This document shows positions 8,291 through 14,373 of a DNA stretch of 64,000 nucleotides, piece after piece. The notes beneath the pieces are model-generated. The model saw only the letters and a list, made by a program, of their open reading frames with translations. It was not told the DNA's origin and did not search any database. Source of the stretch: Candidatus Pampinifervens sinense (lineage in GTDB: Bacteria > Aquificota > Aquificia > Aquificales > Aquificaceae); NCBI GenBank assembly GCA_037927135.1, contig JAXSPP010000001.1:96001-160000 (forward strand), read 5' to 3'. A program made the translations under genes and the position numbers. The number at the start of each line of letters is the position of its first letter. Position 1 is the stretch's first letter.

Positions 8291-8415
8291 GTACAAAGTA
8301 GGCCAGATTTAGTTAAAGGGCTTTAGGATGTTTGCCCTGTGAAGATCTCTTGATTTGAGGTTGTATAAAAGAAGCAGTAACATTTAAGAAATAAGAAAAA
8401 AGAAGAAGATGGGCC

Positions 8416-9606
8416 ATGAGGGACTTTTTACTTTTTTTAGAAAAGAAGGATAAGTTTGCGGTGGGGCTCTTCAGGCAGTTCAACATTGAAGAAAGTCCAA
8501 ACAGGGTAGTCATCATCACCCCAACCCTTGAACAAAAAAGGTGGGTTATGGAGTATGTAAAGGCTAGACTTTCAGATTATGGAAAGGAGATCTTTGTTAA
8601 AGCTAGGGAGGAAGAAAGAAAGGAAAGCTTTGATTTTAAAGATGGATTACAGCAAAAGTATAGCTTTGAAAACTTTGTGGTTGGAAGGGCAAACGAATTG
8701 GCCTATAAGGTATGCCTTGAGGTCTCTTCCAATCCCGGTGCTTACAGCCCACTTTTTATCTACGGTGGAGTTGGCCTTGGAAAAACCCACCTTCTTCACG
8801 CCATAGGAAATAGGGCCAAATCCCTTGGCTATAAAGTCGCCTACAGACAGCTGAACGATTTTTCCGATGAGATGATAAAGAGTTTAAAGCAGGGTAAGAT
8901 GGAAGAGTTCAGGAGGCTGTACGCAAGCTTGGATATTTTGCTATTGGATGATGTACAGTTCCTTTCTGGTAAAGAGAGGACGCAGGTGGAGCTTTTTAGA
9001 ATCTTTGAAAGTCTTCAGGCAAGAGAAAAACAGATAGTCTTTGTGAGCGATAGGCATCCGAGGGACATGAAGGATGTTTCCGAAAGGCTTCTCAGCAGGT
9101 TTGCTAGCGGGCTTATACTGGAAATAGGTTTGGATGAGGACACAAAGCTGTCCATAGTTAAAAATAAGCTATTGCTCTTTGGACTTCCTTTGGACCAAAG
9201 GTACATAGATTATGTAATGGAAAACACTGGCTGGAGCGTAAGGGAGATAGAAGGCTTCATAAGGACATTAAAGCTTACGGGAATAAGGGAAGAGATAAAG
9301 GGAGGTGTGAAAAGGGAAGAGGAGCTCTTGGCCCTTATAGCCAAGCATTTTATGCTAAGCGTGGAGGATCTAAAGAAGGAGTCAAAGGAGAGGAAGATAA
9401 TAAGGGCAAGGCAGATAGCCATGTACTTTTGCAAAAAGCTACTTAGGATGAGCTACTCGGAGATAAGCAGGCTTTTTGGCAAATCTGATCATACATCAGC
9501 CCTTTATGCCATAAGGAAGGTGGAAGAAAAGAGGTACACCGACAAAAAGTTTGATTACATGCTTCAGGTTTTGGAAAAGAACCTAAGGAGGGTTATAAAG
9601 GAATAA
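8416..9606 (+). CDS. dnaA: Chromosomal replication initiator DnaA
   Basis: KYSFENFVVG, PLFIYGGVGLGKTHLL, LLLDDVQFL and domain IV ARQIAMY..DHTS. Confidence 0.92.
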   Translation: MRDFLLFLEKKDKFAVGLFRQFNIEESPNRVVIITPTLEQKRWVMEYVKARLSDYGKEIFVKAREEERKESFDFKDGLQQKYSFENFVVGRANELAYKVCLEVSSNPGAYSPLFIYGGVGLGKTHLLHAIGNRAKSLGYKVAYRQLNDFSDEMIKSLKQGKMEEFRRLYASLDILLLDDVQFLSGKERTQVELFRIFESLQAREKQIVFVSDRHPRDMKDVSERLLSRFASGLILEIGLDEDTKLSIVKNKLLLFGLPLDQRYIDYVMENTGWSVREIEGFIRTLKLTGIREEIKGGVKREEELLALIAKHFMLSVEDLKKESKERKIIRARQIAMYFCKKLLRMSYSEISRLFGKSDHTSALYAIRKVEEKRYTDKKFDYMLQVLEKNLRRVIKE

Positions 9607-9617
9607 ATTTTATACAA

Positions 9618-11168
9618 ATGCTGGTAAGGTTAAGCCTTGAAAACTTTTTTCTCATAAAGGGTGAAGAGCTCCACTTTGATAAAGGGCTAAACGTGATAAC
9701 GGGTGAGACGGGAACAGGAAAGTCTCTCACTGTCTCTTCACTTCTATTCTTAATGGGTGAAGAGGGTGAATACCCAGAAGGCACATGCGTAGAGGCAGAG
9801 CTTTTCTCCGAGGGTGAAAGTGTGGTTTTAAGAAGGGAGATAGTAAAAGGAAGGAGCAGGTATTACCTTAATGGAAGGGGTAGCAACAGAAGGGTAGTAG
9901 AAGAAATCCTTTCTTCTCAGGTGCTTCTCCAGGGTCAGAACGATAGGACAAAGATAACACGCCTGGACTTTCAGAGGGATGTTTATGATAGGTTTGTGAA
10001 GGCACTTGAGGCAAGGAGCAGGGTGGAGAAGGTTTATGAGGAGGTTTTGGACCTAAGGGAAAGGCTAAGGAATATAAGAGAAAGGAGGATTGAAAGGGAG
10101 ATAAGGAGAAGACTCCTTGAGGAGGAGGTAAAAGAAATAGAAGGCATAGGCCTCTCTCCAGAGTCTTATGAGCAAGTCAAGAAAAGGCTTGAAGAGATAA
10201 ACTTGGCCGAAAGGATAAACAACCTTGTGCTTTCGGCCCTTTCTGGCCTTGAGGCAGGCGCAGAAGGTCTAAAGGTGGCAAGCAAGGCCCTAAGGGAACT
10301 TTCAAGCTTTAAAGATGTAAAGGAACAACTGGAAGGTCTTGAGCCAATAAGGGATGTGCTGTTTGAGATAGAGAGGTCTCTGAAGGCTATGCTTGTCTCC
10401 TACAGCCAAGAGGAGCTTGACAGCCTGAACGAGAAGGTCTTTAAGGTTCAAAGGCTTGAAAGAAGGTATGGCATGAGCTATAGAGAGCTTTGGGACCACA
10501 TGCAAAGGCTAAAGGAGGAGCTAAGGAAACTTGAGGAGGAAGAAAGCCCAGAGAAGCTGGAAGAAGAACTAAAAAGGAAGGAGGAGGAGCTTGAAAGGTT
10601 ATACGATGAGCTAAGCCAGATAAGGCAGAGGGGGAAGGAGGAGTTTGAAAGGAGGGTTTTGGAGTATTTAAAGGATATGGGGCTTGAGAGGGCAAGCTTT
10701 AGGGTGCATTTTGAAGAGAAGGCGGGAAGGTATGGTAAAGAGCAGGTAAAGTTTCTCTTCTCTTCCTATGGGAGGGATGAAAAAGAGATCTCCGATGTGG
10801 CTTCTGGTGGTGAGATATCAAGGCTTTCTCTTGCCCTCTTTATGCTTTCGCCACCTGCCCAGACCTACGTTTTGGATGAGGTGGATGCTGGCATAAGCGG
10901 TATTACTTCCATAAGGCTTGCAAAGCTTTTGAGGGAGCTTTCAAAAAACACCCAGCTTATAGTCATAACTCATCAGCCAGCGGTGGCTTGCGCAGGAGAC
11001 AAGCACTTTACTACAAAAAAAGAATACATGGGGGACATTCCCTTTATCAAAGTGGTTGAACTGCAAGAAGAGGAGCGCCTTGAGGAGATAGCAAGGCTTA
11101 TGGGGAAGGTGAATGAAAACACCCTAAGGGGTGCAAAGGACCTAATAAGGGAGGTTTGCGGTGTTTGA
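9618..11168 (+). CDS. recN: DNA repair protein RecN
   Basis: [10 protein letters not shown], coiled coil, ASGGEISRL, DEVDAG, ITHQP, EIARL. Confidence 0.9.
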   Translation: MLVRLSLENFFLIKGEELHFDKGLNVITGETGTGKSLTVSSLLFLMGEEGEYPEGTCVEAELFSEGESVVLRREIVKGRSRYYLNGRGSNRRVVEEILSSQVLLQGQNDRTKITRLDFQRDVYDRFVKALEARSRVEKVYEEVLDLRERLRNIRERRIEREIRRRLLEEEVKEIEGIGLSPESYEQVKKRLEEINLAERINNLVLSALSGLEAGAEGLKVASKALRELSSFKDVKEQLEGLEPIRDVLFEIERSLKAMLVSYSQEELDSLNEKVFKVQRLERRYGMSYRELWDHMQRLKEELRKLEEEESPEKLEEELKRKEEELERLYDELSQIRQRGKEEFERRVLEYLKDMGLERASFRVHFEEKAGRYGKEQVKFLFSSYGRDEKEISDVASGGEISRLSLALFMLSPPAQTYVLDEVDAGISGITSIRLAKLLRELSKNTQLIVITHQPAVACAGDKHFTTKKEYMGDIPFIKVVELQEEERLEEIARLMGKVNENTLRGAKDLIREVCGV

Positions 11169-11835
11169 GGAGATATTAAAGATAAAGGAAAAGGTAAAGC
11201 CCTATGTGGATAGAAGATTATCTGAGTTTAAAGAGCTGGGGAAGAAGGGAAAAACCATCTTTGATTTTAGACCCTTTGCAGACTACGTGTATGAGGCAGA
11301 CCTTTTTTCCGAGCTTTGCTTTTGCATCCTTACCGCCAACTCTTCTGCCCTGATGGGTATAAAACTGCAGAAGACCATAGGCATAGAGGGCTTCAAAAGC
11401 ATGAGCTTGGAGGAGCTTGAAAAGGCCATATCTTCCGCAGGCCACAGGTTTGCCCGCCAAAGGGCAGAGAGGATAGTCAAGGCAAGGGAGAATTTTCATA
11501 AAGTGATGGAGCTTTTAAAGAACTCAAAGAATGCCAAAGAGATAAGGGAGCTTTTGAGCGATAGCTGTTCCAAGTATAAGGTGGAAGGTTTTGGCCTAAA
11601 GGAGGCCTCTCATTTTCTCAGAAACATAGGCTATGAAAACCTTGCCATAGTGGACAGGCATGTGTTCCGATACCTCAAAGAAAAGGGCCTTTTGCCAGAC
11701 TATAAGACCATCACAAGGAAGATATACCTTGAGGCGGAAAAAAGGCTTGAAGAGGTATGTGAAAGGCTTGGCATGACACAAGCAGAGCTTGACCTTTACG
11801 TTTTTTACTACAAGACGGGGAAGGTGTTGAAGTAG
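11161..11835 (+). CDS. ogg: 8-oxoguanine N-glycosylase/DNA lyase (Ogg2 type)
   Basis: FSELCFCILTAN, GLKEASHFLRN, AIVDRH, C-terminal TGKVLK. Confidence 0.9.
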   Translation: MFEEILKIKEKVKPYVDRRLSEFKELGKKGKTIFDFRPFADYVYEADLFSELCFCILTANSSALMGIKLQKTIGIEGFKSMSLEELEKAISSAGHRFARQRAERIVKARENFHKVMELLKNSKNAKEIRELLSDSCSKYKVEGFGLKEASHFLRNIGYENLAIVDRHVFRYLKEKGLLPDYKTITRKIYLEAEKRLEEVCERLGMTQAELDLYVFYYKTGKVLK

Positions 11836-11879
11836 CTTTATCCCTGCAACACCCCTTTTCTAATCCAAGTCTTTCAAGC

Positions 11880-12063
11880 TTTCCGCGAAGGGGTCAATGG
11901 GCCTATGCTTGTCTGAATTAGATGTATCAAGGCTCAGAAGCATTTTGACATTTTATCTCAATTCCCAACTGGAGGTTCGCGGAAAAACAACCCCACTTGA
12001 AGCACTTGACAAAATTCTAAAGTTGGTGTATTATCTGTATTAGCTTTAGGTGGTAGGTGGTGG
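11880..12063 (+). promoter_or_regulatory. CRISPR leader-like region with sigma70 promoter
   Basis: 10-bp inverted repeat TTTCCGCGAA (11880-11889)/TTCGCGGAAA (11976-11985); TTGACA (12006-12011)-N17-TATTAT (12029-12034) pointing at the repeat. Confidence 0.7.
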
Positions 12064-12129
12064 GTTTTATCTGAACTGTGTGGGATGTAAAGCACTTTTT
12101 AGCATGAGTTTTTCAAAATCTTAAGAGGA
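12064..12129 (+). CRISPR. Solitary CRISPR repeat (29 nt, 12064-12092) plus a 37-nt spacer-like segment
   Basis: GTTTTATCTGAACTGTGTGGGATGTAAAG resembles Aquificae-type repeats as recalled (GTTT...GAAC.GTGTGGG...TAAAG); only one copy seen. Confidence 0.7.
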
Positions 12130-12200
12130 GTGGAAGAGTAAGCAAAGGAAAATAAAGCATAAAAGCATAAATAGAGGTATTCCCTTTTTCGCTTTTCCAC
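12130..12200 (+). other. Long imperfect hairpin closing the repeat-spacer unit
   Basis: GTGGAAGAGT..AAAGGAAAATA (12130-12154) pairs with TATTCCCTTT..GCTTTTCCAC (12178-12200). Confidence 0.55.
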
Positions 12201-12244
12201 AAGGCCTTTTACAAAAACAGCGCCATTAGCCTATATTTATTCCT

Positions 12245-12754
12245 ATGAGAACTATAAGCAAAGAACAGTTAAAGGAACTTTACGATAAGGACTTTCCACT
12301 GTGGGTAGAGATTAACTTAGAGCTTCTCAAGGAAAAAGCCTATGATTTGGTGGACTGGGAAAATCTCCTTGAGGAGATAGAGGATATGGCAAGGTCAGAT
12401 TTAAAAGCTTGTATTAGCTATTTAGCGGTTATTTTGGAACATCTTTATAAGTGGGATCACTTTAGAGAACTCACGAAGGCTGGGAAGGAAAGGGGAGGAC
12501 TAAGCTGGATAAGAAGTGTAGAGAATGCAAGGGATGAAATAGACGTGCTATTCTATAGATACCCAAGCCTAAGGCAAAAGCTACCAAAGGAGCTTCAGTC
12601 TGCTTGGGTTGAAGCCAGAAAGAACTTAAGAAGATGGTTAAGGGAATTGGGAGAGGATACGGACAAGTATTTTATTCCAGAAGATTGTCCATACACCTAC
12701 GAAGAGGCAATGACAAGAGATTTAAGGAAGGAGATGAAAAGGCTTAAAGAATAG
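12245..12754 (+). CDS. DUF29 family protein
   Basis: LYDKDF..W, DWENLLEEIEDM, LEHLYKW and PEDCPY motifs. Confidence 0.85.
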   Translation: MRTISKEQLKELYDKDFPLWVEINLELLKEKAYDLVDWENLLEEIEDMARSDLKACISYLAVILEHLYKWDHFRELTKAGKERGGLSWIRSVENARDEIDVLFYRYPSLRQKLPKELQSAWVEARKNLRRWLRELGEDTDKYFIPEDCPYTYEEAMTRDLRKEMKRLKE

Positions 12755-12765
12755 AATTATATCTC

Positions 12766-14373
12766 ATGAAGCTCTTTATAGTGGAGAGTCCTACTAAAGC
12801 TAAGACTATTGCCAAATATCTTGGGAAGGATTGGACAGTAAAAGCTACCTTAGGGCATATTAAGGATCTTCCTGAGGACCATCTTGGTATTGATGAGGAG
12901 ACCCTAAGGCCCACCTTTGTATGGATTAGAGGCAAAAAGGCCCTTATGGAGCAGATAAAAAGGATAGCTCAAAAGGCGCAGGCTATATATATAGGCACAG
13001 ACCCAGACCGAGAGGGAGAGGCTATTGCTTACTTTGTTTATAAAGAGCTGGAAAAGCTAAAGAAGCCCATAAGTAGAGTGGTCTTTTATGAGATAACAGA
13101 GCGCGCTATAAGGGAGTCTTTGCAGAATCCAAGGGATGTAGATATGAACCTTGTTAAGGCACAGTTTGCCAGAAGAATACTTGACAGGCTTATAGGTTAT
13201 AAGCTTTCACCCTACCTTTGGAAGGCCTTTAACAAGAATACCCTATCCATAGGCAGGGTTCAATCGCCAGCCTTAAGGCTTATTGTGGAAAGAGAAAAAG
13301 AGATACTAAGCTTTAGGAAAAAGGAGTATTACTACATAAAGGTCATCTTTGAAAAGGATGGGATAGAGTTTTCAGCCCTTTGGGACTATAGGTTTGAAAG
13401 GCCAGAAAATGCTAAGCCTTACCTTGAGAAGATAAAAGACGCTCTCTTTGAGGTGGTAGAGTATAAGGAGGAGAGAGAAAGAAAGCAACCGCCAGCACCT
13501 TTTATAACCTCAAGCTTGCAGGCTACAGCCAACAGTCTATTGGGGATGAGCGTGGAGGAGGTGCAAAGGATCGCCCAAAGGCTATACGAGGAAGGCTATA
13601 TAACCTATCCAAGAACAGACAGCCATAGGATGAATCCTCAGAAGGCAGAGGAGTTTATGAAATACATTGAAAGGGTTTATGGAAAGGGTTATGTGGGAAG
13701 GCTGAGAACCTTTAGGGATAGATCGGTGGCGCAGGGTGCTCATGAGTGTATAAGGCCTACTTCTATAGACTATCCACCTTTGCAAGGCAAAGAAAGAGAG
13801 TTGTATGAGCTTATACTGAGGAGAACTCTGGCCAGTCTTATGGCACCAGCCCTTCTTTTAAAGAAGAAGGCTGTTCTTGCACCGCTTTATGAGAGGAAAA
13901 AGGGAGAGAATATGATGTTTGTGGCTAAGGGTAGTGAGCTTGTCTTTGAAGGCTACCTTAAAGCCTACCCAGAAGGTTTGGAGCTTGTCAAACTTCCAAA
14001 CCTCAAAAGGGGTGAGATCCTAAAGCCCAAAAAGATAACCCTTGAAAAGAGGCAAACACAGCCTCCACCAAGGTATACGGAGGGTAGCTTGGTTAAAAAG
14101 CTTGAGGAGCTGGGCATAGGCAGGCCGTCCACTTATGCGGTAATAGTCAAAACGCTAAAAGAAAGGGGTTATATTGTGGAAGAAAAGGGTTATCTTAAGC
14201 CTACGGAGTTGGCCTTTAAGGTAATGGAATTCATACAGGAAAAGTTTCCAAAGGTTGTTGATTACAAGTTTACAGCGAAGATGGAGGAGGGCCTAGATAA
14301 AGTAGAGGAGGGGAAGGAGGATTGGAGGGCCTTGGTAAGGAGCTTCTTCTCTTCCATAGGGGAAGGTCTATAA
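12766..14373 (+). CDS. topA: DNA topoisomerase I (type IA, no C-terminal zinc ribbons)
   Basis: IVESPTKAKTI, DPDREGE, GRVQSPAL, ITYPRTD, GIGRPSTY. Confidence 0.93.
   Translation: MKLFIVESPTKAKTIAKYLGKDWTVKATLGHIKDLPEDHLGIDEETLRPTFVWIRGKKALMEQIKRIAQKAQAIYIGTDPDREGEAIAYFVYKELEKLKKPISRVVFYEITERAIRESLQNPRDVDMNLVKAQFARRILDRLIGYKLSPYLWKAFNKNTLSIGRVQSPALRLIVEREKEILSFRKKEYYYIKVIFEKDGIEFSALWDYRFERPENAKPYLEKIKDALFEVVEYKEERERKQPPAPFITSSLQATANSLLGMSVEEVQRIAQRLYEEGYITYPRTDSHRMNPQKAEEFMKYIERVYGKGYVGRLRTFRDRSVAQGAHECIRPTSIDYPPLQGKERELYELILRRTLASLMAPALLLKKKAVLAPLYERKKGENMMFVAKGSELVFEGYLKAYPEGLELVKLPNLKRGEILKPKKITLEKRQTQPPPRYTEGSLVKKLEELGIGRPSTYAVIVKTLKERGYIVEEKGYLKPTELAFKVMEFIQEKFPKVVDYKFTAKMEEGLDKVEEGKEDWRALVRSFFSSIGEGL

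Follow-up and report, generated by a model that had tools for sequence, protein, structure and literature searches.

The question raised by this locus is what a lone CRISPR repeat is doing between the 8-oxoguanine DNA glycosylase gene ogg and a DUF29 gene. The DNA analyzed here (the window) is the whole stretch of 64,000 nt, G000:C1:96001-160000, in which G000 denotes the genome and C1 one of its contigs. An earlier account made from the letters of the window alone (the sequence-only reading) had pointed to a 409-bp gap between the two genes, which the open reading frame list and Pfam confirm, and had preferred to see in it a transcribed crRNA-like regulator made up of one repeat, one spacer, and a hairpin. 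In our assessment, positions 11856-12092 are probably the remnant of a type I-B CRISPR array, with an intact leader and promoter and one repeat but no spacer, the cas operon having been lost. The features on which the argument turns are collected in Table 1.

Table 1. Features of the locus, of related loci, and of the metagenome contigs that cover it (window positions unless a contig is named)
Feature	Position or gene order	Strand	Remarks
ogg, 8-oxoguanine DNA glycosylase	11161..11835	+	Pfam PF22175 Ogg-HhH, E 2e-58; upstream neighbor
CRISPR leader, “cas2-adjacent” subtype	11856..12063	+	homology to G015 leader; 208 nt
10-bp perfect inverted repeat inside the leader	arms 11880-11889 / 11976-11985		86 nt between arms
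Leader promoter TTGACA-N17-TATTAT	12006..12034	+	11/12 consensus positions
Single CRISPR repeat, type I-B family	12064..12092	+	Rfam RF01352 CRISPR-DR43
Repeat flank and 5' region of DUF29	12093..12244	+	not spacer plus repeat
“37-nt spacer” of the sequence-only reading	12093-12129	+	flanking DNA
Imperfect AT-rich stem	12130-12200		fold of 12093-12244
Promoter-like TTTACA-18-TATATT	12208-12237	+	directly before DUF29
DUF29 gene	12245..12754	+	Pfam PF01724, E 1.9e-33; downstream neighbor
topA	12766-14373		after DUF29; Topoisom_bac, E 2e-126
Repeat copies in G000	window 12064-12092 (1); C2 mini-array (2); C6 (1)		≤8 mismatches
G015 cas locus	DHOD-like / 9.4-kb cas operon / leader / 11 repeats / RNaseH-like / speE		gene order
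G000 C2 locus	DHOD-like / leader / repeat-spacer-repeat / DUF29 / RNaseH-like / speE		gene order
Exact X2/X4 contigs	11634-11985; 11958-12090 (depth 35); 12063-12400 (depth 24); 12382-12800		tile 11634-12800

The repeat, its neighbors and its leader

The 29-mer picked out in the sequence-only reading is indeed a CRISPR repeat. It reaches 37.8 bits against Rfam RF01352 (gathering threshold 35, E 4e-4, model positions 1-29 of 29) and matches the family consensus; allowing up to three mismatches, it is found once in the window and in 0/100 shuffles. Rfam calls the match on the minus strand, and it is the leader, together with the arrays of relatives, that sets the biological direction as plus. 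Within three mismatches the repeat occurs in seven of 41 related genomes (G000 counted) and in four of the 24 other genomes of the genus, and an exact search of IMG/VR returned 0 matches. An identical repeat stands first in an array of variant repeats on a Bacillus pfraonensis contig, and identical copies are also part of arrays on contigs assigned to “Bathyarchaeota”; one of these contigs starts inside a leader of the Aquificaceae type found here and may be mis-binned.

Upstream of ogg, Pfam identifies dnaA and a recN-like gene, and downstream the DUF29 gene (one of seven copies in the genome) is followed by topA. By these annotations the repeat is surrounded by core genes (dnaA, recN-like, ogg, topA) and lies outside any mobile element. 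In the complete genome of a sister species of the same genus (G015), the region G015:1127238-1130661 is 89% identical to window positions 8406-11834, and homology stops at the ogg stop codon. The topA gene of G015 is 37 kb off and on the other strand, and the order ogg-DUF29-topA is specific to G000. Divergence between the two genomes at fourfold sites (window 8416-11835) is 52% in dnaA (56/107) and 17% both in the recN-like gene (32/185) and in ogg (13/76), and the abrupt drop from dnaA to the recN-like gene next to it points to a recombination boundary there.

The sequence in front of the repeat is an array leader. It is 89-90% identical over 200-237 nt to the cas2-adjacent leaders of G015 and of three metagenome contigs; homology starts at the G015 cas2 stop codon, and the best match in that genome (90% over 200 nt) lies directly 3' of cas2. 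The 204 nt 5' of the window repeat match at six places in G015, each followed by an array or by one repeat only. G000 has another leader copy, on contig C2, that is 84% identical to that of the window over 152 nt. Aligned with one another, the leaders fall into two subtypes that have the proximal ~150 nt in common, including the promoter, and differ in the distal part; the window leader belongs to the cas2-adjacent subtype.

Two elements reported in the sequence-only reading, an inverted repeat and a TTGACA-N17-TATTAT promoter, are present where it placed them, and both can now be assigned to this leader. Most of the aligned leader copies retain all or most of both arms of the inverted repeat, with no compensatory changes, and the element may bind a protein or be part of the leader architecture. 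Both promoter hexamers are identical in seven of 11 aligned leaders, variant in two, and lost in two, and promoter-like sites are no more numerous in the region than in shuffles (2 vs. 1.4 ± 1.2). Going by the usual spacing, transcription would start near 12041, some 22 nt 5' of the repeat. At 11951-11961 the leader carries an 11-nt copy (TTTTATCTCAA) of the 5' end of the repeat, with one mismatch. A conserved leader open reading frame (48 aa, 11897-12043) was considered and set aside, as it has no Pfam match and the gaps between subtypes there are not multiples of three.

With the other leaders as outgroups, 13 substitutions in the window leader are assigned to the branch of G000 and 11 to that of G015, with one ambiguous site; for the C2 leader the counts are seven and seven, again with one ambiguous site. 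Total leader divergence is ~10.5%, compared with 17% at the fourfold sites of ogg and the recN-like gene. The leader and repeat show no decay, a point against a relic, although it fits a recent loss as well as continued constraint.

Sequence downstream of the repeat

According to the sequence-only reading, the repeat was followed by a 37-nt spacer and then by a long hairpin in place of a second repeat, and neither element stands up. No second repeat, even a degenerate one, is found at the expected offsets, where the best score is 12/29 (at 12129); for comparison, the best of six consecutive offsets scores 13 or more at 12% of window positions. Since only one repeat is present, the 37-mer is no spacer but flanking DNA; a functional array has at least two repeats with a spacer between them, and the window unit does not. 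The supposed hairpin is an imperfect stem in a region (12093-12244) whose minimum free energy, −23.5 kcal/mol, is that of ordinary sequence (dinucleotide shuffles −23.9 ± 3.1, z 0.12, with 107 of 200 folding at least as well), and including the repeat leaves the result unchanged. No terminator-like site was found in 11700-12400.

Nor did the proposed guide have a target in the sequences searched. With blastn-short, the 37-mer gave chance-level matches only (≤18 nt) in the G000 genome and all fetched loci, and its best match in the G015 cas operon and the region upstream of it was 15 nt (E 0.75). The best match among 50,697 phage records (blastn) had an E value of 2, and an exact search of IMG/VR gave 0 matches. 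The larger region 12093-12244 likewise has no homologue elsewhere in the genome or in the fetched loci, apart from 16 nt upstream of the start of the DUF29 gene on C2.

Arrays and cas genes in the genome and its relatives

The G000 assembly comprises 1,546,113 bp in 12 contigs and is 99.96% complete. Even with up to eight mismatches allowed, it contains only four copies of the repeat, namely that of the window, two in a mini-array on C2 (two repeats, one spacer, and a leader of its own), and a lone trailer repeat, without a leader, on C6. A genome scan for other regularly spaced repeats found no other array. The comparison with further arrays of the genome that the sequence-only reading had envisaged thus yields a related leader and repeats on C2 and the lone repeat on C6, but no full array. 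The C2 spacer matches only itself in the genome and has no exact match in IMG/VR; the notion that it, or the 37-mer, might be an “anti-cas” spacer was dropped, as neither matches the G015 cas operon.

The sequence-only reading had seen no cas genes in the window, which is correct, and none were detected in the rest of the genome either. Models for Cas1 (PF01867), Cas6_C (PF01881), RAMP (PF03787), Cas6 (TIGR01877), and Cas2 (PF09827) gave 0 matches each in G000, and each of these family searches was positive in named control genomes. With the Cas3 core model, only helicases came up (≤45 bits, against a cut-off of 102), and tblastn with all nine Cas proteins of G015 had a best E value of 0.2, except for a generic helicase match of Cas3 (26% identical, E 7e-5). 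The cognate cas genes of a functional array are thus missing from G000 as assembled, in 12 contigs and possibly as a metagenome bin; if it is such a bin, a cas island on an unbinned contig would escape these searches. Hot-spring metagenome runs do contain G000. Its 12 contigs end in shared repeat elements: most of the ends of C1-C12 are copies of two elements, which are not CRISPR repeats and are probably insertion sequences. An AT-rich intergenic region elsewhere in the genome (G000:C7:52900-53370) contains a cluster of a 12-13-nt motif (GGGTGTGAAATTC-like), with at least nine copies in direct and inverted orientation, and looks like a set of iterons or an origin.

The sister species carries the same repeat (one mismatch) and the same leader, including promoter and inverted repeat; unlike G000, it also has a nine-gene operon and full arrays, of 8, 16, 10, and 11 repeats (65-68-nt periods), plus one solitary copy. 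The operon, cas6-cas8b-?-cas7-cas5-cas3-cas4-cas1-cas2, is of type I-B by NCBIfam (which leaves unnamed the two genes after cas6, the first of them in the cas8b place, and names cas1 as cas1b). In G015, cas2 is followed by the leader and then by an array. Three JGI metagenome contigs have the same cas2-leader junction; two of them run into an array and the third ends inside the leader, and the leader-proximal spacers of the two arrays differ from each other and from those of G015. This suggests that the cas2-adjacent leader type heads spacer-acquiring arrays in cas-bearing populations. By homology, then, the leader and repeat of the window are of the family found downstream of cas2 in the sister species, at the head of arrays whose spacers vary between strains, and G000 retains three remnants of this family only, with no detectable cas gene. 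A second cas locus in G015 (G015:C1:1225449-1231000) encodes Cas3 and Cas6 proteins 49% and 52% identical to those of the first; the leader copy that belongs to this locus has a degraded promoter, and its repeat is strongly diverged.

The proteins that flank the C2 locus are 90-95% identical to those that flank the G015 cas locus (gene orders in Table 1), and because these flanks match, the position of the cas operon can be said to be assembled in G000 and free of cas genes. The lone C6 repeat corresponds to the 8-repeat array of G015 at 324 kb (flanks 95% identical). Beside ogg of G015, where the sequence is 89% identical up to the stop codon, lies an ordinary 10-repeat array that is oriented the other way and headed by the other leader subtype, a result of the comparison with relatives that weighs against a regulatory unit at this place. 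The C2 locus, the counterpart of the cas locus by position, carries the other leader subtype, and leader subtype and chromosomal position are swapped between both G000 loci and their G015 counterparts. Judging from this arrangement, the history is more than a simple deletion. Two simple rearrangements, an inversion between two oppositely oriented arrays of a G015-like ancestor and a deletion between two arrays flanking the cas operon, were considered, and each fails to explain both G000 loci at once.

Copies of DUF29 lie at the trailer end of both leader-bearing remnants (window 12245-12754 and G000:C2:112444-112950). The first starts 152 nt past the repeat on the same strand, and the second ends 25 nt from the last repeat and is convergent with the array; in G015, the RNaseH-like gene of the matching locus follows the array with no DUF29 copy in between. 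The association may be fortuitous, or arrays may be sites at which DUF29 cassettes insert or recombine. A unit of ~225 nt, consisting of a truncated leader and a single repeat, is also present in G015 (C1, ~865.9-866.1 kb) and absent at G000:C1:232916-232920; its flanks are 90-91% identical between the two genomes, and there is no evident target-site duplication.

Elsewhere in the genus, Cas1 scores above the cut-off in eight of the 24 other genomes, and a relative of Cas6 is found in 17 of them. Another species, G005 (96% complete), has leaders with two-repeat arrays and no Cas1 or Cas6 match.

Known units and rival explanations

It is well documented that genomes without cas genes may retain leaders and minimal arrays, for example at loci of E. 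coli and Enterococcus faecalis, and the CRISPR2 locus of the latter is reportedly an orphan. Loci with a single repeat were counted by Touchon and Rocha (2010; PMC2886076). The window unit is like such orphan arrays: it has a leader with its promoter and a minimum of repeats, its genome has no cognate cas genes, and at matching loci its cas-bearing relatives carry full arrays; it differs in having one repeat and hence no spacer. What defines an orphan or relic is that a genome devoid of cas genes carries a true leader and repeat with homologues in cas-bearing relatives; this is the combination found here, and the unit is of this known kind, an orphan, collapsed, or zero-spacer type I-B array.

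Other units with a single repeat are less similar. In Shmakov et al. (bioRxiv 10.1101/2023.03.03.530964), solitary repeat units and mini-arrays are located within or near the cas loci of cas-bearing genomes, and the spacers of many are partly complementary to cas promoters. The window unit shares with these a single repeat nearly identical to array repeats and the lack of a recognizable downstream repeat; unlike them, it has no cas locus, no target that we could find, and a full array leader. Because of that leader, it is a former or empty array rather than a standalone repeat. Racrs, which are reportedly encoded in viral genomes (Nature 2023, PMC10651486), also consist of a solitary CRISPR repeat with its own promoter, but the window unit is chromosomal, lying between ogg and topA in a host that has no Cas proteins to inhibit, and a Racr is by definition encoded by a virus or mobile element, for which neither the core neighbors nor the 0 exact matches in IMG/VR give any sign. 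A CreA/CreR-type RNA has two repeat-like elements, a spacer partly complementary to the promoter of a cas or toxin gene at a site with a PAM, and Cascade and Cas6; none of these was found for the window unit, the complementarity having been searched for with blastn-short only. The unit resembles orphan arrays and lacks the defining features of solitary repeat units and Racrs.

Metagenome data bear on whether the single repeat is real. Four hot-spring runs contain 98% of the sampled words of the stretch and may include its source; two of these, X2 and X4, gave identical tables and are possibly one data set, and possibly the source of the assembly. One of their contigs (12063-12400) joins the repeat, its flank, and DUF29 without a break, and among the loose ends listed (there are 23 more), the only spacer between two repeat copies is that of C2, at depth 27. 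A true single repeat together with the C2 mini-array would give the picture seen in X2/X4, the single-repeat form and no extra spacers. The suspicion of a collapsed array, raised in the sequence-only reading, is thus answered by contigs that favor the single-repeat form, although they are no proof, as the runs are maybe not independent of the assembly. In runs X5 and X6 only parts of the DUF29 and ogg regions are represented, and neither the leader nor the repeat is; RNA runs contain at most 6% of the sampled words, and an exact search of JGI metagenome contigs for the repeat-flank junction gave 0 matches, which is no measure of the frequency of the single-repeat form. X2/X4 also contain a 2,255-nt contig (depth 25.5; window 11634-12036) in which the end of ogg, with 11 differences in 201 nt, is joined to an inverted piece of leader; it probably derives from a co-occurring relative with a G015-like ogg arrangement.

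Several other explanations must be weighed. That the assembler collapsed a multi-spacer array into one repeat seems very improbable: repeats are a classic source of collapse and the assembly is in 12 pieces, but the contigs end in shared, mobile-element-like repeats and not in CRISPR repeats, and the X2/X4 contigs tile the leader, the repeat, and DUF29, with the C2 spacer as the only other exit among the loose ends listed. We give even less credence to the preference of the sequence-only reading, that the unit makes a crRNA-like regulator of the CreA/CreR type or an RNA anti-CRISPR of the Racr type. A promoter does lie directly 5' of a consensus repeat, and regulatory solitary repeat units and mini-arrays have been described in type I loci, including I-B (bioRxiv 10.1101/2023.03.03.530964). 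Yet the genome offers no Cas6 or Cascade by which the RNA could be processed or used, and a second repeat-like element is lacking; for the 37-mer, the genome, the G015 cas operon, and phage records gave chance-level matches at best and IMG/VR no exact one, and the repeat, likewise without an exact match in IMG/VR, sits among core genes. The regulatory reading fails because no Cas6 was found and the sister species has an ordinary array at this place, two outcomes that it had itself named as refuting it. The second alternative of the sequence-only reading, a naive or collapsed array, comes close to the evidence. A leader with one repeat is a minimal integration substrate and might be kept in readiness, to be used again once I-B cas genes are present, whether from unassembled DNA or through horizontal transfer. 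We consider this unlikely, though it deserves some weight: the leader, promoter, and repeat are undamaged with no excess of substitutions on the cas-less branch, cas-bearing G015 also keeps a leader with a single repeat (G015:866099), the state recurs in G005, and Cas6-like genes are common in the genus. Against it stand the lack of any cas gene in a genome that is nearly complete and the cas locus position that is assembled and empty, and a leader divergence of ~10.5% is not far below the 17% at fourfold sites, so that the intact leader may reflect a simple lack of time and recent loss would explain it as well as constraint does.

The strong leader promoter may instead have been put to a new use, driving DUF29 and topA with the repeat as part of the 5' untranslated region, which we think is rather unlikely. 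The promoter points at these two genes, nothing resembling a terminator intervenes (the AT-rich stem being not unusually stable), and the gene order is specific to G000, G015 having its topA elsewhere. On the other side, a second promoter-like site lies directly before DUF29, and ~20 nt before the DUF29 start are common to the C2 copy, which suggests that DUF29 brings its own signals; on C2, moreover, array and DUF29 converge, so that such a role is impossible there. A more speculative idea, to which we attach a similarly small chance, is that units of a leader and a single repeat are discrete modules of ~225-240 nt that Aquificaceae without cas keep intact as docking or standby arrays for I-B cas cassettes that are gained and lost, the arrays also being recombination sites that reshuffle the chromosome. 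Compatible with it are the presence of the unit in two cas-less species (G000 and G005) and in cas-bearing G015, one clean difference in presence and absence between G015 and G000, and a leader substitution rate that is no higher in the cas-less genome. If true, it would explain both the mismatch of leader subtype and position between G000 and G015 and the DUF29 copies at both trailer ends.

Most likely, the unit is inert, the residue of an immune system that has been lost, and does not act as a regulatory RNA. As we picture its origin as a relic, the cas operon was presumably lost from G000, and recombination between repeats would have shrunk the arrays until one spacer or none was left. Being intact and near consensus, the leader promoter probably still fires at ~12041, and as no terminator precedes DUF29, transcripts probably continue past the repeat into DUF29 and topA. 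Without Cas6, the repeat would remain uncut and no crRNA or crRNA-like RNA would be made, which would leave the unit with neither an immune nor a regulatory role.

Taken alone, this matters little, being a further documented case of CRISPR-Cas loss that left leader-repeat relics, here in a hot-spring lineage of Aquificaceae, but it does correct a tempting reading of such a unit as a regulatory RNA. It also provides a natural series, from a full I-B locus, to the same place with two repeats and no operon, to single repeats, that could be used to study how arrays erode after the loss of cas genes and whether empty units are still competent for spacer uptake.
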